NCBI GenBank assembly: GCA_016717305.1
Contig: JADKFY010000002.1
Span: 346,351-410,350, forward strand
Length of the DNA: 64,000 nt
Reading direction: 5' to 3'
From: Flavobacteriales bacterium
GTDB lineage: Bacteria; Bacteroidota; Bacteroidia; Flavobacteriales_F; PHOS-HE28
Below, in pieces: positions 1-48,597 of this stretch (positions are counted from its first letter, which is position 1; each line of letters starts with the position of its first letter). The translations under genes were made by a program, and so were the position numbers. The notes below the pieces were generated by a model. The model was not told where the DNA came from. It did no database searches and was given only the letters and a program-made list of their open reading frames with translations.

Positions 1-3000
1 TGGCCACGCTGAGTTGCGGCCCGTTGTTGGCGGCGATGCTGCATCCTGTCGGCAGGCGCTTGGCGATATCCGCTTCAGCTGCGCGAATGCTCAACATGGA
101 ACCGCTCGGCAACGCCTGCATCATTTTGCCTCGGTTCGCCACGAGGGTGACCGCATCCTTGAGCGAGAACACACCTGCCAAACAAGCGGCTGCGAACTCG
201 CCGATGCTGTGGCCCATCATGGCCTCGGGTACAATGCCCCAATGCATCCACAATTTGGCCAAGCTGTAATGCATGGTGAAGAGCGATGCCTGCGTGTACA
301 CCGTTTGCTTCAACTGTTCGGCAACTTCCTCTTCCTTGCCTTTCGAGGGGAAGACTATGGACTTGAGATCAACGCCCAATTCGGCATTGAACAGGCCGAT
401 GCATTCATCGAAATGCTGTGCGAAATTTGGTTCACTTTCGTACAGGTCGCGCCCCATGTTCACGTACTGCGAACCTTGCCCCGGGAACATGAACACCACG
501 CCCGGCGCGGCTTCGTGCAATTCACGTGTGGATATCGCGGCAACATCTTTGTTCGCAATGGCATCGATCACCTCCTGGTGCGTACCCCCCACGATCACCC
601 TTCTGTGCTTGAACGATCGCCTTCCTACTTTCAGGGTGTAGGCAGCATCAGCCATAGAGGCATCAGGGTTCTTTTCGAGCCAGGTCCGCAGGTTTTCGGT
701 CATGGCATCCAAGCTCACTTTGGTCTTGGCGCTCAAAAAGAACACCTGCTTACCACGTGAATTGCTGGAAGGTACGGGGAGTGGTCCTTCACCCAGGATC
801 ACATGGGCGTTGGTGCCGCCGACCCCGAAAGAAGAAATCCCAGCGACGCGAGGTTTGGAACCACGGGGCCATTTAATGTTCTCATTGGCCACACGGAATG
901 GGCTGTTCTCCAGATCGATCGCCGGGTTGGGCTTCTCAAAACCGAAGTTTGATGGGATCATACCCCGTTGTAACGCCAAGGCCGTTTTGATCACACCTGC
1001 TGCACCTGCAGCGGCCGTGAGGTGGCCGATGTTGCTCTTGACCGAACCGATCGCACACCAATGCGGATCGCTACTGTTCGGAGCATCAACTCCTTTGAAT
1101 GCAAGCGTGAGTGCTTCCACTTCAATGGGGTCGCCCAAAGGGGTGGCGGTGCCGTGCGTTTCCACGTAGGTGATCTCCGAGGCTTGCACGCCTGCATCGG
1201 CCTGTGCCATGGCGATCACGTCTGCTTGGCCGCGAACGCTAGGTGCGGTGAAGCTTGCCTTTTCACTGCCGTCGTTGTTCAACGCGCTTCCTTTTACGGT
1301 GGCGTAGATGTGGTCATTGTCGCGAATTGCATCGTCCAATCTTTTCAGGACGATGATGCCGACCCCATCGCTGAAGCTGGTCCCTTTTCCATTGGCATCG
1401 AAGGTGCGTGTGCTGCCATCAGGGCTATACATGCCGCCGTCGTTGTACACGATGCCGCTGTTGAAGGGCACGGTCAGTGCGATGCCGCCCGCCAGCGCCA
1501 TGTCGCACTCGCCATCGCGCAGTGCCTTGAACGCTTGTGCGATCGCCACCAGCGATGTGCTGCACGCCGTGTGGATGCTCAAAGCAGGGCCACGCAAGTC
1601 GAATTCGAAAGCCAGGCGCGTGGCGATGTAATCCTTCTCGTTGCCGGTCATTACCTGGAATTCGCCCACCTGTTCGATCAGTTCAGGATGGCCGATCACG
1701 TTCTTCGTGAAGTAGGTGTTGTTGCCCATGCCGGCGTACACGCCGATCAACCCGTCAAATTGAGCGGGGTCGTAAGCGGCATCTTCCAACGCGCCCCAAG
1801 CGGTTTCCATGAACACGCGTTGCTGCGGGTCCATCAAGGCGGCCACCCGGGGATTGATCCCGAAGAAACCAGCATCGAACTTGTCCGCATCGGTGATCAC
1901 GCCGCGAGCGGGCACGTAGTCCGGATCGTTCTTAACGGCATCGGGAATGCTCGGGTCCAATTGGTCCTTGGTCCAGGTGGAAACACCATTCTTTTTGTCC
2001 AGCAGGTTCTGCCAGAGTTCTTCCACGTTCTCAGCACCTGGGAATCGCCCTTTCATGCCGATGATGGCGATCTCGCTGCGACGTTTTTCGGTGATGGCGG
2101 CCTGGCGTGTGCGGGCCATTTCGGCGGGCGAAATGCCGCTGTTGCCTCCTGTCAGGAATTCCGCGCAGGCACGGATCGTAGGGTGTTGGTAGAGCTTCAC
2201 GATCGGGAGTTCGAATCCGCGTGATTCCAATTGGGCCACGCATTGGATACTGAGCAGTGAATTTCCGCCGAGGTCGAAGAAATTATCATCGATCCCCACT
2301 TTGTCAATGCCGAGCAGACTGGCCCAAACGGCAGCAACGGCTTCTTCCAGTTGGGAAGTGGGTCGTGCGTAGGGGATATCCAGGTCCGGCCTTTTGATAT
2401 CCGGTGCTGGCAACCCTTTGCGATCGATCTTACCACTTGGGGTACGCGGTAGTTCCGGCACTTTCACGAACGCACTGGGCACCATGTAATCGGGCAGCAA
2501 AGCGCCCAAGTGCTTGCGCAGGTCGTTTGTGGAAACGTGTTCCGTGGCTACGAAGTACCCGACCAAACGCTTAAGGCCGGGTGTGTCTTCACGCACGGTC
2601 GTTACTGCTTGTTGCACCAGCGGATGCTTCTCCAAGGCCACTTCCACCTCGCCCAGTTCAATACGATAACCGCGGACCTTCACTTGACCATCCATTCGAC
2701 CTTTGTAGTCTATGTTGCCGTCGGGCAATTCCACAGCGCGGTCGCCAGTGCGGTACAAGCGGCCTCCTAGGGTGAACGGGTCAGCAAGGAAGCGCTCTGC
2801 TGTAAGGTCTTCTCGATTGATGTAGCCAGCAGCCACACAAGCGCCACCCAAGAACAGTTCGCCTTCCACCTCTTTCTGGACCGGCTGCATGGAATCGTCC
2901 AGGATGAGCAATTTGACATGGTCGATGGCCTGACCGATCGTTGGAAGGCTGGGCCATGATGCGGGATCCCCTTTCAGTTCAAGTTCGCTGACCACATGGC

Positions 3001-3919
3001 CTTCTGTGGGGCCATACTGGTTGCAGAAACGGCACCCGGGAAGTTGGTTGAACAGTTCGGTGATGGCAGGGGTGATCTTCAACTGCTCGCCACTGGTGAA
3101 CACTTCCCGTAAGGAGGTCGGCACTTCGCCGGTACGCTGAACGGCCTCGGCCAGGTATTGGAGTGCCACGAAAGGCACAATGATGCGGTTGATCCCTTCG
3201 GCGATGATCTTCCGCAGGAGTTGGCTGCTGTTCAATCGATCTTCGTCGGTGATAAGGACCAAGGTCCCGCCTTGGGCGAACGTCGTGAAGAGCTCTTGGA
3301 ACGAAACGTCGAAGCTGATGGGGGCGAATTGCAGGGTCTTGGCGCCTTCGTTCAACACGGAAGTGCGCAGCTGCCATTTGATCAGGTTGATCAGCGGAGC
3401 ATGATGCATGGCCACACCCTTCGGCCTGCCGGTGCTGCCTGAAGTGAATAGTACGTAGCACAGATCATCCGGATCCGTTTCGCGCAACTCCATCTTGTTA
3501 GAGGCTGCGGCATTGTCGAGTGCCAATTCTTCGATCAGTAGGACCTTCGCTTTGGAGCCAGCGAAAAGGTGAGCGTGAGCTCTATCGGTGATCACTACTG
3601 GCGGGGCCGCATCCTCCAGCATCAGGGCAATTCGTTCGGAAGGATAGGTCGGGTCGATGGGCACATAAGCCGCACCAGCCCTCAGAATGCCTAGAACGGA
3701 TTTTATCAGATCCGGGGACCTCTCCAAGCAGATGCCTACCGTCCGGTCTTCACCTGAGACCATTGGGGATATGAGAATGGCAAGGCGCTCAGCCTGTTCC
3801 TTTAGCGCTGAATACGAAACGCCATCGGTTCCAAATTGAAGTGCGATCCTTTCACCGTGCACCGAGGCGGTGTGCTCAAAGAATTCATTGACGGAGCGAA
3901 TTGGTCCAGCTACTTTCAT
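1..3919 (-). CDS. Hybrid NRPS-PKS megasynthase, N-terminal part (adenylation - PCP - ketosynthase - acyltransferase ...); runs off the window start
   Basis: Hand translation of the reverse strand from the ATG at 3919 (TAA stop immediately upstream) gives one open frame to position 1. It carries AMP-binding core motifs (LFTSGSTGRPKGV, YRTGD, GRMDGQVKVRGYRIELGEVE, PDYMVP, PSGKIDRK), a PCP motif (FFDLGGNSLL), a KS start (IAIIGMKGRFPGA) with the active-site TACSTS region, and AT motifs (FMFPGQGSQY ... GHSIGE). The ORF track misses it only because it is open-ended. Confidence 0.85.
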   Translation of the reverse strand, partial: MKVAGPIRSVNEFFEHTASVHGERIALQFGTDGVSYSALKEQAERLAILISPMVSGEDRTVGICLERSPDLIKSVLGILRAGAAYVPIDPTYPSERIALMLEDAAPPVVITDRAHAHLFAGSKAKVLLIEELALDNAAASNKMELRETDPDDLCYVLFTSGSTGRPKGVAMHHAPLINLIKWQLRTSVLNEGAKTLQFAPISFDVSFQELFTTFAQGGTLVLITDEDRLNSSQLLRKIIAEGINRIIVPFVALQYLAEAVQRTGEVPTSLREVFTSGEQLKITPAITELFNQLPGCRFCNQYGPTEGHVVSELELKGDPASWPSLPTIGQAIDHVKLLILDDSMQPVQKEVEGELFLGGACVAAGYINREDLTAERFLADPFTLGGRLYRTGDRAVELPDGNIDYKGRMDGQVKVRGYRIELGEVEVALEKHPLVQQAVTTVREDTPGLKRLVGYFVATEHVSTNDLRKHLGALLPDYMVPSAFVKVPELPRTPSGKIDRKGLPAPDIKRPDLDIPYARPTSQLEEAVAAVWASLLGIDKVGIDDNFFDLGGNSLLSIQCVAQLESRGFELPIVKLYQHPTIRACAEFLTGGNSGISPAEMARTRQAAITEKRRSEIAIIGMKGRFPGAENVEELWQNLLDKKNGVSTWTKDQLDPSIPDAVKNDPDYVPARGVITDADKFDAGFFGINPRVAALMDPQQRVFMETAWGALEDAAYDPAQFDGLIGVYAGMGNNTYFTKNVIGHPELIEQVGEFQVMTGNEKDYIATRLAFEFDLRGPALSIHTACSTSLVAIAQAFKALRDGECDMALAGGIALTVPFNSGIVYNDGGMYSPDGSTRTFDANGKGTSFSDGVGIIVLKRLDDAIRDNDHIYATVKGSALNNDGSEKASFTAPSVRGQADVIAMAQADAGVQASEITYVETHGTATPLGDPIEVEALTLAFKGVDAPNSSDPHWCAIGSVKSNIGHLTAAAGAAGVIKTALALQRGMIPSNFGFEKPNPAIDLENSPFRVANENIKWPRGSKPRVAGISSFGVGGTNAHVILGEGPLPVPSSNSRGKQVFFLSAKTKVSLDAMTENLRTWLEKNPDASMADAAYTLKVGRRSFKHRRVIVGGTHQEVIDAIANKDVAAISTRELHEAAPGVVFMFPGQGSQYVNMGRDLYESEPNFAQHFDECIGLFNAELGVDLKSIVFPSKGKEEEVAEQLKQTVYTQASLFTMHYSLAKLWMHWGIVPEAMMGHSIGEFAAACLAGVFSLKDAVTLVANRGKMMQALPSGSMLSIRAAEADIAKRLPTGCSIAANNGPQLSVA

Positions 3920-4537
3920 GCGTTAGAGTCAAAGGTCCGTGTTTCGGGCCATACTGTAGCGTGATCGTGAATGTTCATAACCCTCAAATGGAGGATGATC
4001 TGGTACGGATCCATCAGGCAAAAAGTTCCATTCGTCGGAAAGTTCATAGGCGCTCCGAACTCATTTGACCTCGGCTCAGGAAAATGCTGATCCGTAGGAT
4101 AAAAATAGGCATTGGGCGAAATATTTGAGGAGTTGGACGTCAACATTGTTCACAACTTCATATGATCTAGTCGGTTACAATCGTTCATTGGGCGTTCAAA
4201 ATGGGTCAGTGGCAAGCAATAGAGCATTTCGAAAGGTTATCCACAATACTGGCACGGCGTGGTGTGGTCCTCTACTTTCGCGGCCTTGAACAAGGAAATT
4301 GCTTTGATCGCGACAAGTTCCAGTCTGATATTCAGGCTTTTGAAACGGTCATTGTGAGGACCTAGTACAACTCGAAGAAATCCGTCTCCCGGTCCTCATG
4401 TAACCCTAGCACGCAGTATTTCGATAAACGGACCAACCGATCCGTTCTTGTTTTTCGTTCCGATGCGCACTGCCTGGCCGCCGGAACTCAAAGGAAAGCA
4501 AGATGGTAGGTCGGATCGTTCTCCAACTTGGAACAAT

Positions 4538-7500
4538 ATGGCACGCAGTCTTCTCACCCTTTTCTTGAGCATCGTGGCCTCCTTGGTCATGTCCCAAAGC
4601 AGTTCGGAACGCGCTGCTGTTCGCTTGAACGCAACCGTACAAGCCTCCCCAGCGAGCATTACACTTTCCTGGACAGCGCTTTCCAGTACCAGTTCCATTA
4701 CAGTTTATCGTAAGTTGAAGAGTGCCACAAGCTGGGGCTCTTCGATCGCGAACCCTTCGGCCAGTGCGACCACCTGGACGGACAATAGCGTTGCTTTGGG
4801 TACGTATTACGAATACAAGGTAGTTCGTAGCTCAGGAGGCAAGACAGGCACCGGGTATGTTGCCACAGGTGTCCAAGTTGCACCGACGGATTATCGAGGT
4901 AAGTTAGTTCTCTTGGTGGACAACACCTTGGCTCCTTCGTTGGTCACCGAATTGGGCCAATTGACCCAAGACCTTCGAGCCGATGGTTGGGCCGTATTGC
5001 GAAATGATGTGGCGCGTAATGCCTCTGTGTCGAGTGTCCGAGGCATTGTCCAAGGCCACTACAACAGCGATCCGACCAACGTGAAGGCAGTGTACATTGT
5101 TGGTCACGTTCCGGTACCATACAGCGGCAACACGATGCCTGATGGGCACGCGGAATTCTTTGGTGCAAGGCCGACGGACGGTTACTATGCAGAAATGAAC
5201 GGTTCCTGGACGGACAACAGCGTGAACAATACCTCTTCGAACCGTCAAGAGAATTGGAATGTACCGGGTGATGGAAAATTCGATCAAAGCGAGTTTCCTG
5301 GTGCCATTGAACTTCAAGTTGGCCGTGTTGATATGTATGACATGCCCGCATTCTCTGCAAGTGAAGTGCAGTTGATGAAGAACTACTTGAACAAGGCACA
5401 CAGTTTCAAGCTGAAAGGATGGGCGCCTACCGCCCGTGGGCTCCAGTTCGATAACCTGCAATGGGTAGCGGACCCGCTCGCAGCGGGTGGCTGGAGGAAC
5501 CTTGCACCATTGGTGGGGAATAGTAATATAACTGAACTTGCTCCGTACGGTGCGTCTTTCGGGTCCATGGTAAATAACCAGAGCTACTTGTGGACGAATT
5601 GCAGTTCAGGTGGTCTGTTGGATTTCCAGAACAATTTGTGGCTTTTCATTGGTCAGGACAATGCCGCGATCACCTCGGAACTTGCCACGACCATCTCTGT
5701 GGGTGGTGTCTTCAACATGGGCTTGGGCAGCTACTATGATGATTTCGACAACAAGAACAACTACCTGCGTGCATTGATCGCACGCGGCGATGCCTTGACC
5801 AACTGTTGGTCCGGAATTCCGACGTGGTATTTCCACCATATGGGCATGGGTGACAACATCGGGTACAGCACCATGGTCTCCATGAACAACACAAGCGTGT
5901 ATGCTCCGCTGCACGATGGGTGGCAGTCCAGCATTGGCCACACGCATATCAATTTGATGGGTGACCCCTCGTTGCGCATGAAAATGGTTGCCCCACCTAC
6001 CGCGCTGGTGATCAGCAATTCCGGTGGGCACCCAGCTTTCAGTTGGACGGCATCCACCGAGAGCGTGCTAGGTTACCATGTTTACCAGATCGAAACATCC
6101 GGGTCGGTCACCCGACTAACGACGACGCCCGTCACAACGACCAACTATTCCGATCCCGCGATTCCTTATCAGTCCGGGCGTGAGTACATGGTACGTGCCG
6201 TGAAATTGGAGACGAATTACAGTGGTAGTTACTACAATTTGTCACTTGGTGCAATGGCCACTGCTCCTGGGGGAGCACAGCCGGATTGCTTGGGTGTTTC
6301 CGGCGGAACTGCCACCCCCGGTACTTCCTGCAATGATGGCAACGCGAACACGATCAACGACGTTTGGAGCAATAGCTGCAACTGTACCGGAACACCTGTT
6401 GTTTTTGACTGCCTCGGTGTAGCTAACGGAGCCGCCACTCCAGGTACTTCGTGCAACGATGGCAATTCGAACACGATCAACGATGTTTGGAGCAACAATT
6501 GCAACTGTACCGGAACACCTGTTGTTTTTGACTGCCTCGGAGTTGCTAACGGAGCCGCCACCCCTGGTACGTCCTGCAATGATGGCAATTCGAACACGAT
6601 CAACGACGTTTGGAGCAACAGCTGCAACTGTACCGGAACACCTGTTGTTTTTGACTGCCTCGGTGTAGCTAACGGAGCCGCCACCCCTGGTACTTCGTGC
6701 AATGATGGCAATGCGAACACGATCAACGACGTATGGAGCAACAATTGCAACTGTACCGGAACACCTGTTGTTTTTGACTGCCTCGGTGTAGCCAACGGAG
6801 CCGCCACCCCAGGTACTTCGTGCAATGATGGCAATGCGAACACGATCAACGATGTATGGAGCAACAATTGCAACTGTACCGGAACACCTGTTGTTTTTGA
6901 CTGCCTCGGTGTAGCCAACGGAGCCGCCACCCCAGGTACTTCGTGCAATGATGGCAATGCGAACACGATCAACGACGTATGGAGCAACAATTGCAACTGC
7001 ACCGGAATACCAGTGGTTTACGATTGCCTGAGTGTACCGAATGGTCCTGCCGTGCCAGGAACCGGCTGTAACGATGGCGACCCTAATACGACCAATGACG
7101 TATGGAGCAACAACTGCAATTGTGCGGGGATCCCGGTTGTTTACGATTGCCTAAGTGTACCGAATGGTCCTGCGATGCCAGGAACAAGTTGTAACGATGG
7201 TGACCCCAATACGACCAACGATACATGGAGCAACAACTGCAATTGTGCCGGCACTCCTGTTACGCAAGATTGTTTGGGTGTACCCAATGGCACGGCCCTA
7301 CCAGGTACTTCGTGCAATGACGGCAACGCCAACACGATCAACGATGTTTGGAGCAACGGATGCGCCTGCGCCGGAACGCCAGTTGTCTTTGATTGCCTCG
7401 GCGTTGCCAACGGAACTGCAATACCCGGTGTATCTTGCGATGATGGTGATACACAAACGACCAACGACGTTTGGAGCAACAACTGCAATTGCGTAGGGAT

Positions 7501-9604
7501 ACCTGTTGTATTCGATTGCGCAGGTGTTGCGAATGGTCCGGCGCTACCTGGAACGCCATGCAATGACGAGAACTCGGCCACGGGCAACGACCAGTGGAAC
7601 GCGAACTGCCAATGTGTTGGTCAGTTGATCGATTGCACGGGCACAGCTGGTGGTCCAGCATTGATCGGCACGCCTTGCAACGACAACAATGCGAACACGA
7701 TCAACGATGTGTGGGGCAGTAACTGCAATTGTGCTGGCACTCCTGTTCCTCAAGATTGTTTGGGCGTACCGAATGGCGCGGCCTTGCCAGGAACACCATG
7801 CGATGATGGGGACGTGAACACGACCAACGACGTTTGGAGCAACAACTGCAATTGCGTTGGAATACCTGTTGTTCTCGATTGCGTAGGTGTTGCGAATGGT
7901 CCGGCCCTACCTGGAACGCCATGCAATGACGAGAGCTCGGCCACGGGCAACGACCAGTGGAACGCGAGCTGCCAATGTGTTGGTCAGTTGATCGACTGCA
8001 CGGGCACAGCTGGTGGTCCAGCATTGATCGGCACACCATGCAACGACAACAATGCGAACACCACGGGTGATGTTTGGAACAACAACTGCAATTGCGTAGG
8101 GATACCTGTTGTATTCGATTGCGCAGGTGTTGCGAATGGTCCGGCCCTACCTGGAACGCCATGCAATGACGAGAACTCGGCCACGGGCAACGACCAGTGG
8201 AACGCGAGCTGCCAATGTGTTGGTCAGCTGATCGACTGCACGGGCACAGCTGGTGGTCCAGCATTGATCGGCACGCCATGCAACGACAACAATGCGAACA
8301 CCACGGGCGATGTATGGAACAGCAACTGCAATTGCGTTGGAATACCTGTTGTATTCGATTGCGCAGGTGTTGCGAATGGACCTGCCCTACCTGGAACGCC
8401 ATGCAATGACGAGAACTCGGCCACGGGCAACGACCAGTGGAACGCGAACTGCCAATGTGTTGGTCAGTTGATCGATTGCACGGGCACAGCTGGTGGTCCA
8501 GCATTGATCGGCACGCCATGCAACGACAACAATGCGAACACCACGGGCGATGTATGGAACAGCAACTGCAATTGCGTTGGAATACCTGTTGTTCTCGATT
8601 GCGTAGGTGTTGCGAATGGTCCGGCGCTACCTGGAACGCCATGCAATGACGAGAACTCGGCCACGGGCAACGACCAGTGGAACGCGAGCTGCCAATGTGT
8701 TGGTCAGTTGATCGACTGCACGGGCACAGCTGGTGGTCCAGCATTGATCGGCACGCCATGCAACGACAACAATGCGAACACCACGGGCGATGTATGGAAC
8801 AGCAACTGCAATTGCGTAGGGATACCTGTTGTATTCGATTGCGCAGGCGTTGCGAATGGTCCGGCCCTACCAGGCACGCAGTGCAATGACGAGAACTCGG
8901 CCACGGGCAATGACCAGTGGAGCGCGAACTGCCAGTGTGTTGGTCAGTTGATCGACTGCACGGGCACAGCAGGTGGTCCAGCACTTCCAGGAACCCCCTG
9001 TGATGATGATGATGCCACTACGGTAGGCGATGTATGGTCCACGAACTGCAATTGCTCAGGATCTGCGTTGCCACCCCCGGCGGATTGCGCGGGTGTTGCA
9101 GGTGGTAGTGCCTTCCTGGATGACTGTGGAACATGCGCTGGTGGATCAACAGGGATCGTACCTAATGCAGATGTGGACTTCGATGACCTTATCCCGTGCG
9201 AGGATAATTGCAGCGGGGTCTGGAATCCGCAGCAAACGGATTATGATGAGGACAACATCGGTGATGCCTGTGACAATTGTGTGTGGGTCTACAACCCGTC
9301 CCAAGCCGATGAGGACGGGAACGGTATCGGTGATGCGTGTGATGTACGAGTTGGGATCGCCGAGTTGACCGATGGTTCCAATTTCGGTTTCTTCCCCAAC
9401 CCGACCAATGGCAATGTGAACATGGTATGCACGGTCGCTGGAGCACGAATGCTCAAGTTCTACAATGCAGTGGGTGCCTTGGTCTTTGAGGCCCCAGTTC
9501 GGAAACAAATGGATCTCCGCGAACTTGCGATGGGGGTCTACACGGTGCTTGTGCTGGATGCGGAAGGCAGCCCGCTGGCACAGACGAGGCTCGTTCGCCA
9601 ATAA
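4538..9604 (+). CDS. Giant secreted T9SS cargo protein: signal peptide, FN3-like domain, gingipain (C25)-like domain, about 24 tandem 40-aa Cys-rich repeats, thrombospondin-type-3-like Ca-binding repeats, T9SS C-terminal sorting domain
   Basis: Track ORF 4448..9604; the likely true start is the Met of [21 protein letters not shown] (signal peptide). N-terminal region shows C25-like landmarks ([11 protein letters not shown] ..., ELQVGRVD, ... [10 protein letters not shown]). The repeat consensus is [41 protein letters not shown]. The Ca-binding repeats read [14 protein letters not shown] / [12 protein letters not shown]. The C-terminus [12 protein letters not shown] ... [23 protein letters not shown] is a type-A T9SS sorting domain. 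Confidence 0.8.
6281..9060. repeat. Coding tandem repeat array, 120-bp period (40 aa, 4 Cys per unit), about 24 units
   Basis: Directly visible 120-nt periodicity. The first six units are nearly identical. The minus-strand long ORFs 6232..7002 and 7701..8984 are artefacts of this periodicity. Confidence 0.9.
7860..8990. repeat. Near-identical 240-bp super-repeats (two alternating 40-aa repeat variants), about 5 copies
   Basis: Units beginning ATACCTGTTGT(A/T)TTCGATTGCG... at about 7872, 8102, 8342, 8582 and 8822 differ by only a handful of nucleotides. A diverged copy lies at about 7499. Confidence 0.85.
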
Positions 9605-9617
9605 CGGGCCGAAGTTG

Positions 9618-9662
9618 GAAAAAGGGCTCTCTGGCAACAGGGGGCCCTTTTCATTTATTGCC
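9618..9662 (+). terminator. Putative rho-independent terminator of the giant cargo gene
   Basis: Stem aaaagggc ... gccctttt with about a 16-nt loop, followed by ttttcatttatt, just after the stop at 9604. Confidence 0.45.
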
Positions 9663-9738
9663 CCGTGCTCCGGCGTGCATCACCCCAAAAGAATGGTGCC
9701 GATCCATAGTCGGATCGTAGGTGGTCACCCTGACGTCG

Positions 9739-10722
9739 TCAGGTCGCCAGAATTGCCAACACGCGGAACAGGTCTGTATTCAAGGACTTTACCTTCCCGA
9801 TGGATTGTGTGAAAGGGGTGAGGGTTATTTGACCATTGACCACACCGATCATCTTATCGTGCTCCCCAGCGATCAAGGCATCCACAGCCGCAACTCCCAA
9901 TCTACTCGCCAACAACCTGTCCTGCACGCTGGGAGATCCACCACGTTGGATATGGCCGATCACAGACACCCGGATATCGGCATTGGGTATACGTTCCTTC
10001 ACTTTTCGTGAAACGTCGTACGCACCGCCTTCTTCTTCTCCTTCGGCAACTACCACAATGCTGGATGATTTCGTCCCAGATCCTTTACTCAGCGCTTCAA
10101 CGAGTTCATCAATGTGCTCCGGTCGTTCAGGTACCAGCACGAATTCGGCACCCGCGGCAACAGCGCAAGCCAACGCGATAAATCCCGTATCACGGCCCAT
10201 GACTTCCACAAAGAACAAGCGGTCGTGGGAGGAAGCTGTATCACGTATCCGATCGATGGCTTCAACGGCCGTGTTGATCGCCGTATCATAACCAATGCTG
10301 TAGTCTGTTCCGGCGAGGTCATTGTCGATCGTACCGGGAAGGCCGATCGTGCGGACCCCATGCTCCTTGAAAAGAAGGTTGGCACCAGTGAAGGTTCCGT
10401 CGCCCCCAATGGCAACTAGCGCATCCATACCAAGTTCACGAATGGCAGCGGCTGCTTTCACTCTGCCTTCAATGGTCCTGAACTCTTCAGAGCGAGCCGA
10501 TCGAAGGATCGTGCCACCACGTTGTACGATGTTGCTCACGTCGCGTGGCCCGAGGGTTCGGACGCGGCCGGTCAACAAGCCATCGTAACCACCAATTATT
10601 CCACTTACTTGGATCCCTTGCAACGCTGCCGCCCGGACCACGGCCCTGATCGCAGCATTCATGCCGGGACTGTCACCTCCCGAAGTGAATACGCCGATGT
10701 GGCGGATCACCTCAGAACTCAT
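9739..10722 (-). CDS. pfkA: ATP-dependent 6-phosphofructokinase
   Basis: IGVFTSGGDSPGMNAAIRAVV ... GGDGTFTGA ... MGRDTGFIALA ... IGHIQRGGSPS are PFK hallmarks. The start at the internal Met (MSSEVIRHIGVF) gives an ATGA overlap with the upstream gene stop at 10719. Confidence 0.9.
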   Translation of the reverse strand: MSSEVIRHIGVFTSGGDSPGMNAAIRAVVRAAALQGIQVSGIIGGYDGLLTGRVRTLGPRDVSNIVQRGGTILRSARSEEFRTIEGRVKAAAAIRELGMDALVAIGGDGTFTGANLLFKEHGVRTIGLPGTIDNDLAGTDYSIGYDTAINTAVEAIDRIRDTASSHDRLFFVEVMGRDTGFIALACAVAAGAEFVLVPERPEHIDELVEALSKGSGTKSSSIVVVAEGEEEGGAYDVSRKVKERIPNADIRVSVIGHIQRGGSPSVQDRLLASRLGVAAVDALIAGEHDKMIGVVNGQITLTPFTQSIGKVKSLNTDLFRVLAILAT

Positions 10723-11990
10723 TCCGCGATAACACGACCTAAGCTGCGCATAGCACCGGAACTCGGGTCGAGGAACACGCACTGGTACACACCAGCACCC
10801 AAACTGCCGCGTTCGATCCGCAACGGTGAGGCGGGTACATTTCCGTGACGCAGCACCTCCCTGCCACTGGCATCCAACAAAAGCACGGTTGCACCTGCTT
10901 GCTGGGCGGACAGATCAACGGTGAAGTGGGTGCCGAATGCAGTTGGATAGGGTACGGGAAGGTCAGCGGCCTTCAATTCATCCGTTCCGATGAATGAGCC
11001 TTCAAGGGAATATGAATCGAACAAACAAGCGATGTAAAGCATGTTCCCGTTGGCGTGGAATTCCTCCTGGGAAAACAGATCTGCTTGGTCAACGATCCCG
11101 TCGTTGTAAGGCTCCCAATTGATCCCACCATTCAGTGTCCGGTAAATACCCAAGGTGCCCGACTTGGTGGTGGCGTAGAACTTGCCATCGAACGCGATCA
11201 GATCAGCACCGGCAACCGGCGCTGCCACAGGGTAGTTTACGCTAGGTGTCCATGTTGCGCCGCCATTCGTTGACCAGCGGGCCCCAAGAGACGTGATGGC
11301 GACGATCCTGTCATTCACGGATTGGACAGCAAATACAGCGAAATTGGCAGTTCCGGCTTGGTTCCAGCTCTGTCCGAAGTCTGTGGATTGCATTAGAGAT
11401 GTGCTGGTGGAGGCATACAAGGTGGTGCCATCCAACGCCAAATTATATACGGTCATGTTCGCACTGAGCCCACTGTATCCAGCGAGCCAGGAAGTCCCGT
11501 CATTGATGGTCCTGAAGATGCCACCACCCATGTTCAAGCTGTTCTGCACCATTCCAGTGTACACTACAAAAGTGGTATTCCCGAAGGTGTAGATCTTGTT
11601 CGCATAAAGATCATCGTTAACGGGCAAGCTAGCGCCGACCGGGCCATTTGCAGGTTCCCAACTGGCACCATCATTCAAGGACCTGTACACGCCTGACTGC
11701 GTTCCGCACAACAATGCAGTGGCACTGTGTCCCACGGAGCGAGCGTTCACACTCCCATTGGTAACGGGCAGTCCGTTGTTCACAATGGTCCATGTAGCAC
11801 CATCATCCGTGCTTTTACGCACACCGGTAGGGTATGTGGCCACGTATATGGCCCCATTGAAGGTGGTGATGCTCTGGCTGCCGGATACAGCCACAGGAGG
11901 GGCACCCACATTTAGATGTTCCCACTGGGCGTGTGCCATTGAAGTGATCAGAATAAGCGCGGCAACGGAAGCGTAACGTGCAAGGACCAT
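10719..11990 (-). CDS. BNR/Asp-box repeat beta-propeller protein with signal peptide and T9SS C-terminal sorting domain
   Basis: Six S-x-D-x-G-x-(T/S)-W Asp-box repeats (STDDGATW, SLNDGASW, TINDGTSW, STDFGQSW, STNGGATW, TLNGGINW). N-terminal signal MVLARYASVAALILITSMAHAQ. C-terminal 80 aa has T9SS sorting-domain character. Confidence 0.75.
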   Translation of the reverse strand: MVLARYASVAALILITSMAHAQWEHLNVGAPPVAVSGSQSITTFNGAIYVATYPTGVRKSTDDGATWTIVNNGLPVTNGSVNARSVGHSATALLCGTQSGVYRSLNDGASWEPANGPVGASLPVNDDLYANKIYTFGNTTFVVYTGMVQNSLNMGGGIFRTINDGTSWLAGYSGLSANMTVYNLALDGTTLYASTSTSLMQSTDFGQSWNQAGTANFAVFAVQSVNDRIVAITSLGARWSTNGGATWTPSVNYPVAAPVAGADLIAFDGKFYATTKSGTLGIYRTLNGGINWEPYNDGIVDQADLFSQEEFHANGNMLYIACLFDSYSLEGSFIGTDELKAADLPVPYPTAFGTHFTVDLSAQQAGATVLLLDASGREVLRHGNVPASPLRIERGSLGAGVYQCVFLDPSSGAMRSLGRVIAE

Positions 11991-12477
11991 GTGGTTCGGA
12001 TTTGGCGTAAAAGTAGGACTATTGGACTTTCCGAAACCGAACAGTTACCGTTCTTACCGATCGCTCTTCGTTCAAAACCATTGATCGGGTTCATCCGGGT
12101 AACCGTAACTTTGGTACGTGATCAAACGGGAAGGGATCGTGATCGGTGCATGGTGGCTATTGTTGCTTTTTGCAACATTGCTTGTTCCACGCGACCTCTT
12201 GCACCATTGTGCGGACGATCATGATACCGAGCTAGGGCATTCTTCGGAAACCGGTTCAGTCCATGGGTCTTGCTCGATCTGCCAAATGGCAGCCTCGGTC
12301 TTAGGGCCTCATGTTGAAGCGGTGTTCAGCGGTCCATTGCTTTCAATTCACTTGGAGCCGTCGATCATAGCGCACAGCTTTCCATTGGTCGACTTGGAAG
12401 CGTTGAGCGGAAGGGGGCCACCTCCTTTGGGCTGACCCCAACTGGGTCGTTTTGGGCTGGCTTGGCCTTAAAGTGCC

Positions 12478-17959: not shown

Positions 17960-20557
17960 TCAACGCCCTTGACGTAGCACTTCCACACGTTGGGTGTGGA
18001 TGGACGGGCCTTGTTGGATCTGCAAGAGATATACCCCTTCGGCAAGTGCCGAGAGGTCCATGGAGACCATTTCAGCATTCCCTTGCACGCTATGGGCGAG
18101 TCGCCCTTGAAGATCGAGGATGGAAATGGACGAACGTGTACTTGCGGGCAGGATCAGAGTCAATTTCCCGGAGGTCGGATTGGGATACAACATCACCTCG
18201 GTCGGAACGAGTTCTTCAAGGTCAGTGCTGGTGTCGATGATGATGCCATAGTCTTCAGTTTCCCCGTACACATAGTTGAAGCATGGATCGGTAGGGGATG
18301 GTTCGGTTCCTAGATGGAAAACGCCCCGGACTCTCATCCGAGTAGAACCAAGGACGGCATTGACCGGCACATTGAACGCCATGGAAACGACCTGGCCGGC
18401 CGCTGTTGTAGCCACCTCGCCGAGCTTCTCGGAAGCCTCAAAAACATCATCTTGATCGTAATCTATCCAAGCTGCATAGTTGTCCGCCTCGTATGAACCT
18501 CCTTCAATGAACAAGGTCTGGTCGGTGCCGACCCCGATCGGGGTGAATTGCGTGGCTACATAATTGTTGTAGGTCGGCCCATCGGTACCTCCTGTATTGC
18601 TGTTGTTGATCGCTGCGAGTTCCACGCCGTTGATATAATCACCATCCGCAGGGCCTGTAAGGGATGTTGGAATGCAAGGGCCTGCGATGGGAGTAGTGAT
18701 GGTGATCCCGTAATCCTCGGTCTCGCCATATGCGTAGTTGAAACAAGGATCGGTCGGTGTTGGTTCCCCGGTCCCGTGGTACACACCACGGACACGCAAA
18801 GTCGTTGTGCCCAAAGTAGCACCTGCAGGAACTAGGAAGTTGATCGCCTGTGTTTCACCGACAGTTGTAGTAGCAAATTCGCCCAGTTTCTCGGAAGCCT
18901 CGAAACTGTCGTCCTGATCGTAATCGATCCACGCTGCATAATTGTCGGGCTGAAAGTCGCCTGATGTAATAAAGATGGTTTGGTTGCTACCCCGGGCCAA
19001 CGAAGTGCTGAAGGAAGAAGTGTAGTTGGTATACGTCGGTCCGGTATTGCTGCCGCTGTTCACATTGTTGATCGTAACCAATTGCACCCCGTCGATGAAG
19101 TCGTCATCCGCTGTGCCATTCGCCGATGTGGGGATACAGGGACCAGTTACGGGCGTGGTGATCGTGATCCTGTAATCTTCCGTTTCACCAAAAGCATAGT
19201 TGAAGCAGGGGTCCGTCGGCGTTGGTTCTCCAGTGTTATGATAGACACCTCTTACCCTCAGGACGGTGTTGCCCAATGCAGCCCCGGCGGGTACCACGAA
19301 GTTTATCGCCTGCACTTGACCGATCGCGGTGGTTGCGAATTCACCGAGTTTCTCTGAAGCCTCAAAGGTCTCATCACCATCATAGTCGATCCATGCAGCG
19401 TAGTTGTCAGGTTGGTAATCTCCTGCAGTGATGGTTATGGTTTGATTACTGCCGCGTACCAATGAGGCTGAAAGAGTAGCAGTATAGTCGGTATAGCTCG
19501 GCCCGGTATTGCTGCCACTGTTCACGTTATTGATCGTACCCAATTGCACGCCATCAATGAAATCATCTTGGGTGGTCCCGGAGGTTGATGTGGGTATGCA
19601 GTAACCGGTCGGGGTGGATTGGCACGCATTGGTGTTCAGCAATTGGCTACGTACCCCGGTAAGGACACCGGCCATATAGCTGGACTGTTGATTGGTGAAC
19701 ATGCGTGTGCAGCTCGCGTAGTCCATGAAATTCTCATACTGCGTTAATGTCCCGCACTTCATTAGGTTCGTGTTCGAGCAGGAATAAGTTGGGCTGTCCG
19801 TGGTTGGTGTATCGGCGAAGCCATCCGCGTTAACGCAACCACCGTCATCATCGAAGGTGTGCTGGAGGCCGAAGTAGTGCCCGATCTCATGCGTGGCCGT
19901 GCGGTCGCCAGGTTCCGTTCCGTAGTCGTAGTCGATCACCAATCCATCAATGTTGCTTCCCACCACGCCACCAACTGGCAAGTACGCATAGCCCACGGTA
20001 ATGAAGCCACCTGTGGCACCACTTGCGATGTCGCATATCCAGATGTTCAAATAACGATCCGTGTCCCATGGAGCACGGCCATCGGGAGCCGATTTCATAT
20101 CGTTTGTCTCCGTGTCAGGATCGAACCACGTTTGTGTCGTTTGTGTTCGCGTGATCCCTGTGGTGGCAGCTCCGTTCGGGTCCACTTGGGCAAGGCAGAA
20201 GTTGAAACCGACATTCCCAATGCTGCTTGTAAATTGGGAACGCACACTTCCGATGTCCGTATTGCTCGCGGAATAGTCCGCGTTCAATTCGTCGATGATC
20301 GCTTGGATGGTTCCAGTGGAAACGTTTTCGGGGGTGGTATTGTAGACAACATGGACCACAACGGGAACGGTGTACGTGCCACCGCGCTGGACAAGATCAA
20401 CCCGGGGTAATGCATCAAGAAGGTTGGTGGACAAGCCTTGCGACTGCAAGTACTGTTGCGTGTGCTTCTGTGCACTGCAGGTCCGGTGTTGTTGGGACTG
20501 GGCATTCAAGACCGCAGCGGTGAACAGCAGGCCTCCGAGAAGTATGGTTCGTGTCAT
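17960..20557 (-). CDS. Secreted zinc metalloprotease (metzincin, M43/cytophagalysin-like) with three GEVED domains and T9SS C-terminal sorting domain
   Basis: HEIGHYFGLQHTF is the HExxHxxGxxH metzincin motif. Three repeats of about 125 aa each end in (F/Y)GE(T/V)EDY(R/G)ITI, the GEVED-domain signature. The C-terminus MLYPNPTSGKLTLIL ... GVYLLQIQQGPSIHTQRVEVLRQGR is a T9SS sorting domain. Signal peptide at the N-terminus. Confidence 0.85.
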   Translation of the reverse strand: MTRTILLGGLLFTAAVLNAQSQQHRTCSAQKHTQQYLQSQGLSTNLLDALPRVDLVQRGGTYTVPVVVHVVYNTTPENVSTGTIQAIIDELNADYSASNTDIGSVRSQFTSSIGNVGFNFCLAQVDPNGAATTGITRTQTTQTWFDPDTETNDMKSAPDGRAPWDTDRYLNIWICDIASGATGGFITVGYAYLPVGGVVGSNIDGLVIDYDYGTEPGDRTATHEIGHYFGLQHTFDDDGGCVNADGFADTPTTDSPTYSCSNTNLMKCGTLTQYENFMDYASCTRMFTNQQSSYMAGVLTGVRSQLLNTNACQSTPTGYCIPTSTSGTTQDDFIDGVQLGTINNVNSGSNTGPSYTDYTATLSASLVRGSNQTITITAGDYQPDNYAAWIDYDGDETFEASEKLGEFATTAIGQVQAINFVVPAGAALGNTVLRVRGVYHNTGEPTPTDPCFNYAFGETEDYRITITTPVTGPCIPTSANGTADDDFIDGVQLVTINNVNSGSNTGPTYTNYTSSFSTSLARGSNQTIFITSGDFQPDNYAAWIDYDQDDSFEASEKLGEFATTTVGETQAINFLVPAGATLGTTTLRVRGVYHGTGEPTPTDPCFNYAYGETEDYGITITTPIAGPCIPTSLTGPADGDYINGVELAAINNSNTGGTDGPTYNNYVATQFTPIGVGTDQTLFIEGGSYEADNYAAWIDYDQDDVFEASEKLGEVATTAAGQVVSMAFNVPVNAVLGSTRMRVRGVFHLGTEPSPTDPCFNYVYGETEDYGIIIDTSTDLEELVPTEVMLYPNPTSGKLTLILPASTRSSISILDLQGRLAHSVQGNAEMVSMDLSALAEGVYLLQIQQGPSIHTQRVEVLRQGR

Positions 20558-38553: not shown

Positions 38554-41500
38554 TCACTCCTTCACGAAGCGTGCGCTGGAAAGCTGACCTCGCACGTCCT
38601 GAAGTTGGAACGTGTAGCTCCCAGCTCCCAAACGAGGTAGAGCGATCGACCTTTGGTTCAACCCATCGTCCATCAACAACGGACCTGAAATGGCGATACG
38701 ACCCGTATTGTCAAGGATCCTGTATTGCCCGGAACCTTCGCTCATGCCTTTGAATTCGAGCCCCAATTGCTCGCCGACCGGATTTGGCCGAATGGTGATC
38801 TTTCCAGCGGACGGGCCATGGAAAGCCGTTACCACCCTGGAGAATTCCTCTGAACCTTGGGCATCGATCAGTGCGATCCTGTAATGGTTGGTGCCGATCA
38901 GTGGGGTCGTGTCCATGAATTTATAGGCTTGGGTCCCCGATGTAATCACCGGCACTTCGATAACGCCGATCCCGGCAAAGGTTCGACCATCCGCCGATCG
39001 TTCAATGCGATAACTGCCGGTGTTGTGCGTGCCGGAAGTAAGCCAGTCCACCGAAATTCCCTGTTCCCCTGCGGTTGCGAATAGGTCCAACAGGTCCAGT
39101 GGGGTATAGATGCAATCGATCGAGGCGCCCCCCTGTGTATTCCAATTGAGGGTGAATCCATTGGTGGTGAGGTACCAGTTGTCCAAGAACAGGGTGTACC
39201 ATTGTCCGGGCAATACATCCAAATAGCGTGTCCATCCATCACCGAAAACGCCTTCGGAAATGTCGGTAGCAGTAAAATTCAGACCGGTCACGGCAGCACC
39301 ATCGGCCCACGAACAACGGATCGGCAAGCTATTGGGTGGGCAGGTAATACCACCGGTGTATGGACCCCAAACACCGTAGTCGTAATCGGTGTTGCCCGGT
39401 CCCACGCTGAATCCCAATTATCCGCCGAGATAGACGTAGAAGCTGTACCAGACCCCCCTACGTTCATTGGTGATCAAACAGCCCCGGTTGCTGAAGTTCA
39501 AGTCTTGGACATCACCGATGTTCAGGGGTGTTGCGCTTAGGGATGCATCGCCGCAAACTTGTTCCGCACCAAGGCAATCTTCTTGCGGAGCTGGAGGAAC
39601 GTTGCACAAATTGTCCACCACGAATAGAAAGAAGGGGGTGCTAGGAGGCGTTCCGCTATTCAGCAGCAGTCCACCGTTCTGTGCCCTCACGGTATACCCG
39701 ATCTGGTTCTGGAACCCACCCACCGGTGTATAGGTGATCTGGAAGATATCGGTCGGGTTCCCACCGAAAATTACACTGCCCACCGCACCTGTGATCGTGT
39801 AGTTCGTTACAATGGGTGGCCCGATCCCCAAGGGGAACCGATTGATGGTGACCGTCGATCCGTCCCAGCCATCACCGCCAAGGTCGGTCATGCGCAAGGT
39901 GTACGAACAAGCGCCCGGAGGTGGGTCTGTGCGGCTTGCACAGATCTGGAAGCTGCTCGCCACTGCGGTTCCTTGTCGCCAAACCCGGATATAGACCAGT
40001 TGGCCTGCGGGGGGTAGACCGGCAAGGATGGTCAACTTTGGCATGTCCGTGCCGTTCTGGCTCCCATTGGTGATGCATTGGCCGATCGCAGCCAAACTCA
40101 AGTTGCCACCACCGCAGGTACCGGAGACCACACGGTACACTTCCATGGCGGCATCGGTGAGCGCCCCATCATCAGTATCCAACACCAATTGGCCGTTGGG
40201 GGGCACCACGGCAGTGAACCAGACATCGTTGTTCGCGGCGCCTCCACAACTGGGGTTGGGTACATTGATCGTTCCTGCGGGGGGCGGGGCATTGACAGTG
40301 GTTGTGGCATTCCCCATTGTGGCGCTGTTGAGCGAACAGCCATATTGGACGGTAAGGGGTAACGCCCCGCATGGATCATCGTTAGGTGGTGGTGATGTGG
40401 GTTTGGCGCAGATGGTGAACGTACCGAAGACCGTGGTCTTGTTCCATACACGGACATAAATGACGGTGCCCTGTGGTACAGTAGGTGGGACCAAGGTGAT
40501 CGTGGGCAGCGCAGCACCGCCGGGATCACTGCATGCCACTTCTGTCAAGGTGCCATTGCATGTTCCGGTATACACGGCCATGGCGGCATCGGTCAAGTTG
40601 GCGCTGGGGATATTGATCACCGTACCCACGCTCGGGGTCATCGGAGTTACCGGTGTGGTGAGGGTGAACCACACATCGCGCAAGGGTGCCACGTTGCCAC
40701 ACGTTGGCACGGCAGGGAGGTATGTAGGCCCGGTAGATGGCGTTGCATTCTGCGTGGATGAATTGATCGTTGTACAAGCGGCATCCACGGTAATGGGAGT
40801 AGCGTTGCACGGTTCGTCGTTCACGGGCAAAACCGGGTTGTACGCACAGATCTCGAAAGATCCACCGTTCAGGATATTGCTCTCGGGCCAAACGCGGATA
40901 TAGATCACGTCCCCCGGCGTTAGCCCGGTCCGAAGAAGATAGGGTTGAAGACTTCCGGGAGCGATGTCATCGTTACAATCCAAAACGGTCCAATTGGAAG
41001 CTGGAAGGGCCGGTGCACTGCAAACGGGCGGTATGTACCAAGCCATGCCAATGTTGGTGGCCACGACCAAATTGGTCTCTACGGCCAAATTACCGCTAGG
41101 GGGCACCACGGCGGTAAACCACACGTCCGCATTGTTGGGGTAATTGCCGCAAGGTGGAGTTCCGATACCGGATGTCGCCGTTGCCCAGGTGGTGCCGGAG
41201 GTGATCATGCTGCATGAGTTCCCTACGTTAAGGACTATGGCGGTACACGGGTTGTCGTTCACCGGGGGCGGAGGTACGGGTGAGCAGGTGATCTGGATGG
41301 TTCCGCAAAGGGCTGTGTTGTTCGCACACGTAGGCGGTGGGCCTGAAATGCGGATGTTGTAGCTGGCATTTACCGACGGGTTGAACGTTACGGTGCTCAA
41401 TGGACCACCGCAGCCGTTATCATCCCATACATAGCCCGTGGTTGTACCATTGGAAATGGTCAAGTACGAATTCCAGGATGTATTCGTCGAACTACAAAGT

Positions 41501-41886
41501 GAAATGGTGTACACGTTCGATGCACACATGTAGATGGGGATCCGTTGGCCTTCGCAAACGGTGGTCGTGAACAATGTTGGGCAAGCGGCACACGCACCCG
41601 TTATGGACGCCGGTGGCCAATTCTGAACCCATGTATTCGGTGGAGAAGATACGAGTGGGTTCGGCCAACCGGTCGCATTGGCAGGAACGATGGTGGCGGC
41701 CGTATAACACTGGGCTCTTAATTCCCTGTTGCCCTGCAGTACCACAAAGCCCGCGATCAAGATCACAACCCATCGGTCCATGCTCCACTTTCCACTGCGC
41801 TTTTCACGCGTGCGGTGCAGCGTGCAGTTCTTCGGAGCCGTCCGTGTAACAGTGGGATTTTCGGGTGGTCCTTGTGGCATCGACAA
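38554..41886 (-). pseudogene. Giant modular T9SS cargo protein, paralog 1 (PPC-like beta-sandwich repeats, conserved C-terminal region, Ig-like domain, T9SS sorting domain), interrupted by an in-frame TAA at 39418-39420
   Basis: Track ORFs 39418..41886 and 38554..39417 are in the same frame, separated only by a TAA. Aligned with paralog 2, ...WYSFYVYLGG*LGFSVGPGNTDYDYGVWGPY matches ...AAAGNLAFTISPGGYADYDFAVWGPY, so the stop sits where the paralog has Asn. The downstream 'start' is a TTG in the track. Confidence 0.7.
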
Positions 41887-42021
41887 GCGAAGATAGCTGG
41901 ATCTTAACAGCTTGCAACTTATGTTGAAAACGTTCGATCGCCAGCCGGGTTGCCTTGTTGGGAAGCCACCGGCTCATCTCATACACGGAATGTCCAAAAA
42001 GAAGCATGCGGGTCCCGAAAA

Positions 42022-42060
42022 TGGAACGGGGCCGCCTCGTTTGAGACAGCCCCGTTCGAA
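42022..42060 (-). terminator. Putative terminator between paralog 2 and paralog 1
   Basis: Minus strand GAACGGGGC-(16 nt loop)-GCCCCGTTC followed by CATTTTC, directly after the paralog-2 stop (42077). Confidence 0.4.
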
Positions 42061-42076
42061 TTGCATTTGTTCTTTT

Positions 42077-45367: not shown

Positions 45368-45379
45368 GTTCGGTTGGTA

Positions 45380-45826
45380 TTAGCGGTCGTTGGTATGGAG
45401 CGGGGCAACAGAATACGGCTGCTCAGGATGTGCGGCGTTCCAAGTGCCCACAGCGATGCGGTAGCGTTCTTGATCCTCCACCTCATTTCCAGAAACCACG
45501 TAGACCGGTGGCGCATTCGGGTCCGCAGCAGGCAAATAGGTAGAGAGGTCCGCGAGCCCTTCGCGCAATTGGAGCCCGGTGCTTTCGAGCGCTGTGCGCA
45601 TCTCGGCTTCGGAAAGCTGAGCGCTTTTCACCTGCACGATCCGCATGTCGTCGGAGTAGGTCACATTGGCCATAGGGTCGACGTTGGCGACTGCTTCGAT
45701 CATGAACTTCAGGGCCGATCGGTCAAAGGTGTCGGCCACCTCGAAGGAACGGGTCACTGGAGCCTGTGCCAAAACAGAAAAGCCCATAAGTAACAGGGCT
45801 GTTGAGAGGATTGCGCGATACCTCAT
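45380..45826 (-). CDS. Small secreted protein A (HMA-like fold + conserved C-terminal motif), 12 nt upstream of paralog 2
   Basis: Signal peptide MRYRAILSTALLLMGFSVLAQA. The central region has a ferredoxin/HMA-like pattern but lacks CxxC. C-terminal PPVYVVSGNEVEDQERYRIAVGTWNAAHPEQPY is shared with the two other small proteins. Confidence 0.6.
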   Translation of the reverse strand: MRYRAILSTALLLMGFSVLAQAPVTRSFEVADTFDRSALKFMIEAVANVDPMANVTYSDDMRIVQVKSAQLSEAEMRTALESTGLQLREGLADLSTYLPAADPNAPPVYVVSGNEVEDQERYRIAVGTWNAAHPEQPYSVAPLHTNDR

Positions 45827-46007
45827 GGTCGTATTGGAATTTAGAGTTGGCTTAAAGATAGTCGCTTTTTAACGTAAGAAGGCACCAATTTGTTCTTAAT
45901 GTGTTGATCCAACGTTCAAAACACGCATCCTATTTGGACGATAGACGGCATCATGGACCAAGGGTTGCCTAGGTGTTGAAAAGTGGGTCATTGGCAGACG
46001 AACCGGT

Positions 46008-48561: not shown

Positions 48562-48597
48562 GCGAACTTGGATCGTTTCCCCCCGAAAAACATGCAC

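Follow-up and report, generated by a model that had tools for sequence, protein, structure and literature searches.

An array of uncatalogued four-cysteine repeats and a gingipain-fold head in a putative T9SS surface protein from an uncultured member of the Flavobacteriales

Background

What would a bacterial surface protein do with a head domain shaped like a gingipain protease, followed by a long run of nearly identical cysteine-rich repeats that have no entry in Pfam? This question is raised by a gene near the start of a 64,000-nucleotide stretch of contig JADKFY010000002.1 (positions 346,351 to 410,350 of the forward strand; assembly GCA_016717305.1), the whole of which is called the window here and in which all positions are counted from its first letter. 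The ORF listing gives an open reading frame (ORF) at 4448..9604 on the forward strand, and translation from the ATG at 4538 yields 1,688 residues and a stop codon (4538..9604). The uncultured Flavobacteriales bacterium encodes here a genuine protein of 1,688 residues, probably secreted to the cell surface, with a gingipain-shaped head and an array of four-cysteine units. Its domain order is an N-terminal stretch resembling a signal peptide, an FN3-like domain, the head, a second FN3-like domain, the array, thrombospondin type-3 (TSP3) repeats and a sorting domain for secretion by the type IX system (T9SS). The reading that we favour, with moderate confidence, is that of a C-terminally anchored T9SS surface protein in which a disulfide-stapled stalk of variable length holds a non-proteolytic binding head off the cell.

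The four-cysteine unit

The array occupies 6284..9082 (+; aa 583-1515) and was delimited by unit parsing, a hidden Markov model (HMM) applied to each unit, Tandem Repeats Finder and an AlphaFold2 model of three units. Parsing gave 23 complete tandem units (16 of 41 aa, six of 39 aa and a last one of 43 aa), each with exactly four cysteines (92 in the whole array), and their individual E-values against the unit HMM lie between 1e-19 and 1e-24; within the window the unit is confined to this gene. A first-pass annotation, made from the sequence letters alone, had counted about 24 copies: 23 of them stood, and the supposed 24th matches the profile at positions 1-11 only (E = 12) and then runs on as DDCGTCAGG. 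The consensus given there, DC.GV.NG.A.PGT.CNDGN.NT.ND.W..NC.C.G(T/I)PVV(F/Y/L), describes the units accurately, and the accompanying suspicion that the repeat belongs to no known family was borne out. Neither Pfam-A nor NCBIfam returned a match even at E <= 10, a three-unit profile found nothing in the PDB by sequence, and the only matches to thrombospondin repeats fall at aa 1544-1604, beyond the array, so that the repeat is indeed not TSP3. A full-text literature search for the motif strings found no report of the unit; a preprint on diatom adhesive proteins, in which T9SS and Cys-rich repeats are mentioned, was set aside since it concerns DUF4215 and six-Cys repeats instead.

When 1.84 billion representative proteins were searched exhaustively with the unit HMM, 2,073 passed E <= 0.001, of which 286 also reached E <= 1e-30, and a single protein showed as many as 39 matched stretches. 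The unit is outside the catalogued families and has no solved structural relative, yet it is common in nature. Where these proteins carry a name at NCBI, it refers to their tail, FN3 or TSP3 parts only, and annotation pipelines therefore do not recognise the unit. A set of 2,280 distinct units yields the signature D1-C2-x-G4-x-x-G-G8-x-A-x-P-G13-x-x-C16-[DN]-D18-x-[DN]-x-x-T23-x-x-D26-x-[WY]28-x-x-x-C32-x-C34-x-G36.

The three-unit AlphaFold2 model (pLDDT 96.2, pTM 0.61) has one beta-hairpin per unit, and the unit is confidently predicted to fold individually. Many paralogues carry a lone unit directly after their second FN3 domain, and because single units occur in isolation in this way, the unit can be regarded as an autonomous module. 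In nine paralogous loci with the same head (L011, L014, L015, L026, L029, L035, L050, L063 and L066), the isolated unit is of an 'NNACT' type with an odd number of cysteines, namely five, and after it comes another kind of repeat, which is Ig-like and has one cysteine per copy (motif FCxGGSVxL).

The company that the unit keeps is that of exported proteins. When the final 90 residues of the top 150 unit proteins were compared with tail families, 107 proteins matched Por_Secre_tail and 11 matched CHU_C (118/150 together), and many of the remaining 32 end within a repeat, i.e., are truncated sequences. Proteins P0125 and P0127 share the head of the window protein, others have different N-terminal domains, and P0138 is a type-B T9SS protein of 4,654 aa. 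In other proteins the units sit between domains resembling carbohydrate-binding modules (CBM-like), HYR, CARDB, F5/8-C and TSP3 domains, and in P0129 and P0149 a shorter form of 29 aa alternates with CBM-like domains. The association with T9SS cargo is thus a matter of observation, and the unit appears to be a generic extracellular spacer of such cargo.

Two known repeat types invite comparison, of which the first gives the sole hint of kinship. With the Dictyostelium CTDC repeat (PF00526) the unit shares tandem, extracellular, Cys-rich arrays and, in its 'NACT' variants, the core C-[ND]-D-G-N-x-C-T-x-[ND]; these variants touch positions 1-10 of the PF00526 profile below threshold (E = 0.035-5.6), and P0125 carries a true Dicty_CTDC repeat (30.9 bits) directly after a unit. 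The CTDC repeat differs in its 24-aa period (39-43 aa here) and its cysteine pattern, and the window units read N-A-N-T, have a Trp where CTDC has a Cys, and gave no match to PF00526 at E <= 10, so a kinship between the two appears remote at best. TSP3 (PF02412) resembles the unit as a short, Asp/Asn-rich, disulfide-containing repeat of extracellular proteins.

The units might be functional themselves, as Ca2+- and/or glycan-binding modules that provide multivalent adhesion to polysaccharide or mineral surfaces, and not an inert spacer. The invariant acidic or polar positions D1, D18, T23, D26, [DN]17 and [DN]20 and the aromatic position 28 (W in 76%, Y in 16%) over the 2,280 units would suit such a role, as would the adjoining TSP3 repeats, which are true Ca-binding repeats, and the co-occurrence with carbohydrate-binding-like domains. 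We nevertheless hold it to be unlikely: by sequence the repeat profile resembles neither TSP3 nor any other solved Ca-binding module, elsewhere the units stand like linkers between recognisable binding domains, and the conserved Asp and Asn residues may just cap turns. The copy numbers reported in the next section, which run down to zero under the same head, are also easier to square with a spacer that can be dispensed with than with a binding element that is essential.

A second cysteine motif follows the array at 9083..9157 (+; aa 1516-1540). This short stretch, of CGxC type and counted as the 24th copy in the first-pass annotation, reads DCxGVxGGxAxxDxCGxCxGG(S/T)TG and agrees with the four-Cys unit in its first 11 residues (profile positions 1-11 only); it recurs in P0125 and P0138, unrelated giant T9SS proteins, has no Pfam match, and may be a sister module of the unit. 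Another variant was seen in P0174, a metagenome protein of 2,813 aa from ENA with 39 copies of a core of ~28 aa (GTxCxDGDxxTxxDxC...) and no Pfam match. As P0174 is eukaryote-like, with a C-terminal transmembrane helix and a basic tail, the core of the unit may reach beyond the Bacteroidota.

Amplification and length variation of the array

At the DNA level the array is strongly repetitive. Tandem Repeats Finder detects two periods, 123 and 240 nt, whose scores of 1,132-2,067 are far above chance, the 240-nt period comprising 4.8 copies with 95% matches. Units 1-6 (6284..7021, +) form a near-identical block with 83-97% nucleotide identity in the pairwise matrix. Within units 11-22 (7514..8953, +), delimited by Tandem Repeats Finder and the identity matrix, units 14-22 make up a 240-nt super-repeat of two units in which the 39-aa and 41-aa types alternate, and units 11-12 are of the same two types, cut off from units 14-22 by the odd unit 13. 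Units of the same type in this stretch are 91-99% identical over 117 nt, with the exception of unit 12 (83-87%). Such high identity among the units indicates that they were amplified recently.

Repeat number varies between relatives: at 80 genome loci with the same head, 0 to 43 units follow downstream; a comparison of homologs to this end had been proposed in the first-pass annotation. The nearest relatives all come from metagenome-assembled genomes (MAGs) of uncultured Flavobacteriales. The closest (protein P0275 at locus L081, GCA_017990115.1), from a conspecific and syntenic genome, has ~97% nucleotide identity and the same polyketide synthase upstream, and its protein is identical to that of the window at 647/649 positions over aa 1-649 and at 408/415 over aa 733-1147. 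Between aa 649 and 733, i.e., within the block of units 1-6, an offset change shows that L081 lacks exactly 246 nt (two units, in frame). Because the L081 contig stops inside the array, the difference may reflect either strain variation or an assembly collapse.

The same concern applies to the window, where 23 may in part be a count made by the assembler if near-identical repeats of 123 or 240 nt were collapsed or expanded during metagenome assembly. This is independent of how the protein is read and does not compete with any account of its function; we give it a minor but appreciable probability. The very high identity of same-type units, the L081 contig that ends within the array and differs by two units, and the fact that most relatives are MAGs all make it credible. 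On the other hand, the frame is intact across 5 kb with four cysteines in every unit, 19-43 units are present in relatives that were assembled independently many times over, and an artefact would alter no more than the count, leaving the module and its nature as they are.

The gingipain-fold head

The head (4889..5986, +; aa ~118-483, ~365 aa) is related to the gingipains (MEROPS family C25, clan CD) in a way that sequence searches barely detect. Peptidase_C25 (PF01364) reaches 18.5 bits on it, below the gathering cutoff of 23 (E = 0.0013), and matches 18 of 40 sampled relatives weakly at E <= 0.01 (best 4.7e-08). A query with aa 110-489 found 1,501 relatives, mostly proteins of ~650 aa built as FN3, head domain, FN3 and T9SS tail. 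In the PDB, the family profile matched FN3 domains only and no gingipain by sequence, so that the link had to come from structure comparison, in which the modelled head has the two-sub-domain caspase-hemoglobinase fold of gingipain type. On the strength of this comparison we take the predicted fold to be the gingipain scaffold.

The two C25 landmarks that the first-pass annotation had pointed out are real. With an RgpB sequence that was checked against the PDB, hhalign of the head family profile aligned sub-domain A only, and there the first landmark pairs with RgpB YVLLVGDHKDIPAK; limited to sub-domain B, it aligned just the second landmark, LMGDPSL, with RgpB VFGDPSL. The GH of the first landmark was rejected as the site of the catalytic histidine, being part of a sub-domain A motif and not RgpB His211. 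Placement of RgpB on the head family with MAFFT --add was likewise discarded, since strand s7 of RgpB fell on a predicted helix. As residue-level alignment of sub-domain B failed, our verdict on the catalytic dyad rests on strand order and family-wide conservation, for which the head model provides the six strands expected of sub-domain B.

Over 305 relatives, the residue after the third strand of sub-domain B (s7, the place of His211 in RgpB by strand order) is Gly in 98% and Ser in the window protein, and after the fourth strand (s8, the place of Cys244 by the same reckoning) the pair Gly397-Ser398 is invariant. Throughout the domain, Cys is conserved to 58% at most, the best column being position 356 (Cys 58%, Ser 34%), and no conserved His follows the relevant strands. 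The window protein has Ser at 356 and, where the family has Gly, also at 357. The canonical His/Cys dyad thus appears to be absent and the head is probably non-catalytic as a Cys protease, as the first-pass annotation had suspected. Compared with RgpB and Kgp, the window head is 12-14% identical only and under the Pfam cutoff, and neither Cys nor His is conserved where the dyad would be; Propeptide_C25 was not matched in the window protein, whose N-terminus is held by an FN3-like domain in place of the propeptide. Sub-domain A also contains a large insertion (aa ~198-258) that is strongly conserved, is rich in invariant Asp, His and Asn residues and has no counterpart in RgpB. A literature search for gingipain-like T9SS proteins in Flavobacteriales found nothing relevant.

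About 14 polar residues are invariant in the head family, among them D202, H204, D214, D226, N241, D245, D249, R263 and D265 in the sub-domain A insertion and D305, S398, D402 and H470 in sub-domain B, and some site, binding or catalytic, must therefore be under strong selection. A head that is still a hydrolase, using another catalytic set on the gingipain scaffold (e.g., Ser398 for Cys244, with D305, D402 or H470) as a stalk-mounted enzyme, is in our judgement rather improbable. The fold itself speaks for it, as do the weak Peptidase_C25 matches in about half of the sampled relatives and the complete conservation of G397-S398 and D402, which lie in a stretch, F-x-x-x-x-G-S-Y-F-G-D-W, that by eye matches F-I-F-D-V-A-C-V-N-G-D-F of RgpB. 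D305, also 100% conserved, follows strand s5 close to the place of RgpB Glu152, and position 356 switches between Cys and Ser. Yet the Gly at the equivalent of His211 is hard to reconcile with such an enzyme, the equivalence of S398 and C244 comes from strand order only, profile methods having given no residue-level alignment there, the propeptide domain is absent, and the two serines at 356 and 357 set the window protein off from the family consensus.

The head is flanked by two FN3-like domains. The first (4622..4840, +; aa ~29-101) was assigned with the family profile against the Fn3-like protein 3mpc_A (E = 4.4e-08; E = 0.034 with the single sequence as query), and the second (5993..6262, +; aa ~486-575) through matches to FN3 domains of titin and PTPRD at profile positions 469-542 (E = 2.8e-07 to 5e-04).

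Signals for export and sorting

The N-terminus resembles a typical Sec signal peptide: at aa 1-20 (4538..4597, +), read by eye, a basic n-region and a hydrophobic stretch are followed by MSQ. At the other end, the TSP3 repeats and T9SS tail that the first-pass annotation had placed there both have homology behind them. Two to three TSP3 repeats of the Ca-binding type (9167..9349, +; aa 1544-1604) were found with phmmer against the PDB, where thrombospondin-2 (E = 1e-20) and COMP (3e-12) align with their DxDxDGxxDxCD motifs, and the Pfam TSP_3 model gives a sub-threshold 12.2 bits on this fragment.

The last ~70 aa (9392..9601, +; aa 1619-1688) are probably a divergent T9SS type-A C-terminal sorting domain, on which Por_Secre_tail (PF18962) scores 19.3-23.1 bits against a cutoff of 27 and TIGR04183 12.1 against 23. 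BLASTP nevertheless aligns this tail with that of P0125 at E = 2e-16, the latter passing the cutoff itself with 36.4 bits, and in hhalign the probability is 96.5% against a profile made up mostly of passing tails. Judged by these alignments, the window tail is clearly homologous to T9SS sorting tails that pass the cutoff. Por_Secre_tail also scores above the cutoff in three other ORFs of the window (17960-20557, 42077-45367 and 49172-51139). The host genome uses the T9SS as judged from these cargo genes, none of the machinery genes having been seen in the window.

In Porphyromonas, the C-terminal domain of type-A cargo is cleaved off and the protein is anchored covalently to the surface through A-LPS (PMC4560394, PMC8545088).

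A proposed surface stalk and its relation to known proteins

In the reading that we favour, of a length-variable stalk with a binding head, the putative signal peptide would direct export by Sec to the periplasm, where the protein would fold and the 92 cysteines of the repeats would form disulfides. The sorting domain, given its homology, would route the protein through the T9SS and, by analogy with type-A cargo of Porphyromonas, would be cleaved, with the new C-terminus joined to the outer-membrane surface. The 23 units may then constitute a stiff, protease-resistant stalk, with the TSP3 repeats at its base and the FN3, gingipain-fold and FN3 domains as a head at its tip; the array is placed as a stalk with the head at the far end because the anchor is C-terminal. 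The head would keep the gingipain scaffold without its dyad and most likely bind a ligand instead of cutting protein. Recombination among near-identical units may change the length of the stalk, as for the fibrillar surface proteins known as Periscope proteins. The order of the domains, the fold of the head, the unit as an autonomous module with a confident fold, its link to the T9SS and the variable repeat number come from the analysis itself; that the cysteines pair, that the array is a rod, that the protein is anchored at the surface and that the head binds something is what we infer.

Several observations weigh against this account. The pTM of the three-unit model fits a defined geometry without proving it, disulfide pairing and rod shape being presumed, and the two-unit difference to L081, whose contig ends within the array, is possibly an assembly collapse. 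The invariant polar residues of the head, including D305, S398, D402 and H470, would also suit an enzyme, and the sorting tail is under the trusted cutoffs of both Pfam and TIGRFAM. The demonstration of anchoring through A-LPS comes from Porphyromonas and not from Flavobacteriales, and some type-A cargo of Flavobacteriales is released.

Surface proteins that consist of a stalk and a distal domain have been described, together with variation in their repeat number (PMC8286594, PMC9704523). To these Periscope proteins and fibrillar adhesins (SasG, Rib and proteins with SHIRT repeats) the window protein is similar in being a single chain whose attachment signal is C-terminal, whose putative stalk consists of tandem repeats of very high identity and whose functional domain lies distally, at the N-terminus; its repeat number may likewise differ between close relatives. 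High identity of the repeats in the coding sequence, a criterion for Periscope proteins, is found in the window array, and individual folding of the units, another criterion, is predicted for it. The repeat folds of Periscope proteins, however, have ~50-165 residues (PMC9704523, PMC8286594), whereas the window units have 39-43 and are disulfide-based, and export and attachment depend on sortase/LPXTG or an autotransporter barrel there but would depend on the Bacteroidota T9SS here. The likeness is also qualified in that the rod shape of the window protein is presumed and its repeat variation was seen across the assemblies of relatives, not in a population.

These results would give definition to two candidate domain families, the Cys-rich repeat (>2,000 representative proteins, nearly all T9SS cargo) and the dyad-less gingipain-fold domain (>1,500 proteins), and they fill an annotation gap without overturning current understanding. 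They point to periscope-type surface proteins of variable length that are built on the T9SS by environmental Flavobacteriales, a group abundant among MAGs from activated sludge and freshwater, an architecture so far known mostly from Gram-positive sortase substrates and autotransporters. The 40-residue disulfide module, whose confidently predicted fold is unmatched, also lends itself to structure determination and might serve protein engineers as a rigid spacer. Two bolder and separate conjectures, which we see as long shots, are that the unit represents a new disulfide-stapled, possibly Ca2+-loaded rod fold for T9SS stalks and the head an unrecognised branch of the gingipain fold (>1,500 members), in which the dyad would be replaced by S398, D305, D402 and H470, by the cluster of Asp and His residues at aa 202-265, or by both, amounting to a new catalytic type in clan CD.

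Genomic surroundings

The gene is followed, 16 nt past its stop codon, by a terminator-like hairpin (9620..9651, +) with a stem of 14 pairs and a T-rich tail, which is a consensus match only. No Bacteroidota -7 promoter box (TAnnTTTG) was found upstream of the gene, and an Rfam scan of positions 1-12000 of the window gave no match. On the opposite strand and divergent from the gene lies a FAAL-ACP-KS-AT polyketide synthase (2-3922, -), which is open at the window start and is the neighbour shared with L081. The other neighbours are a convergent phosphofructokinase gene and genes for a BNR-repeat protein, a TonB-dependent receptor, PurK and an M43-GEVED T9SS cargo protein, and farther on in the window lie housekeeping genes and another two genes for T9SS cargo. 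The window is ordinary chromosome of a T9SS-using bacterium.

T9SS cargo is unusually dense in the window. Three clustered ORFs at 39418-51139 (-) carry GBD_T9SS_assoc galactose-binding-like domains, two of them with T9SS tails above cutoff. CUB domains are known mostly from animals, and a clear one (Pfam E = 3e-18) is present in a bacterial protein of 523 aa encoded at 46536-48107 (-). At 55413-57422 (+), the ORF for valyl-tRNA synthetase is short, at 669 aa, and its match to the class-I synthetase profile starts at position 184; it may be N-terminally truncated through a frameshift or through miscalling of the start site.

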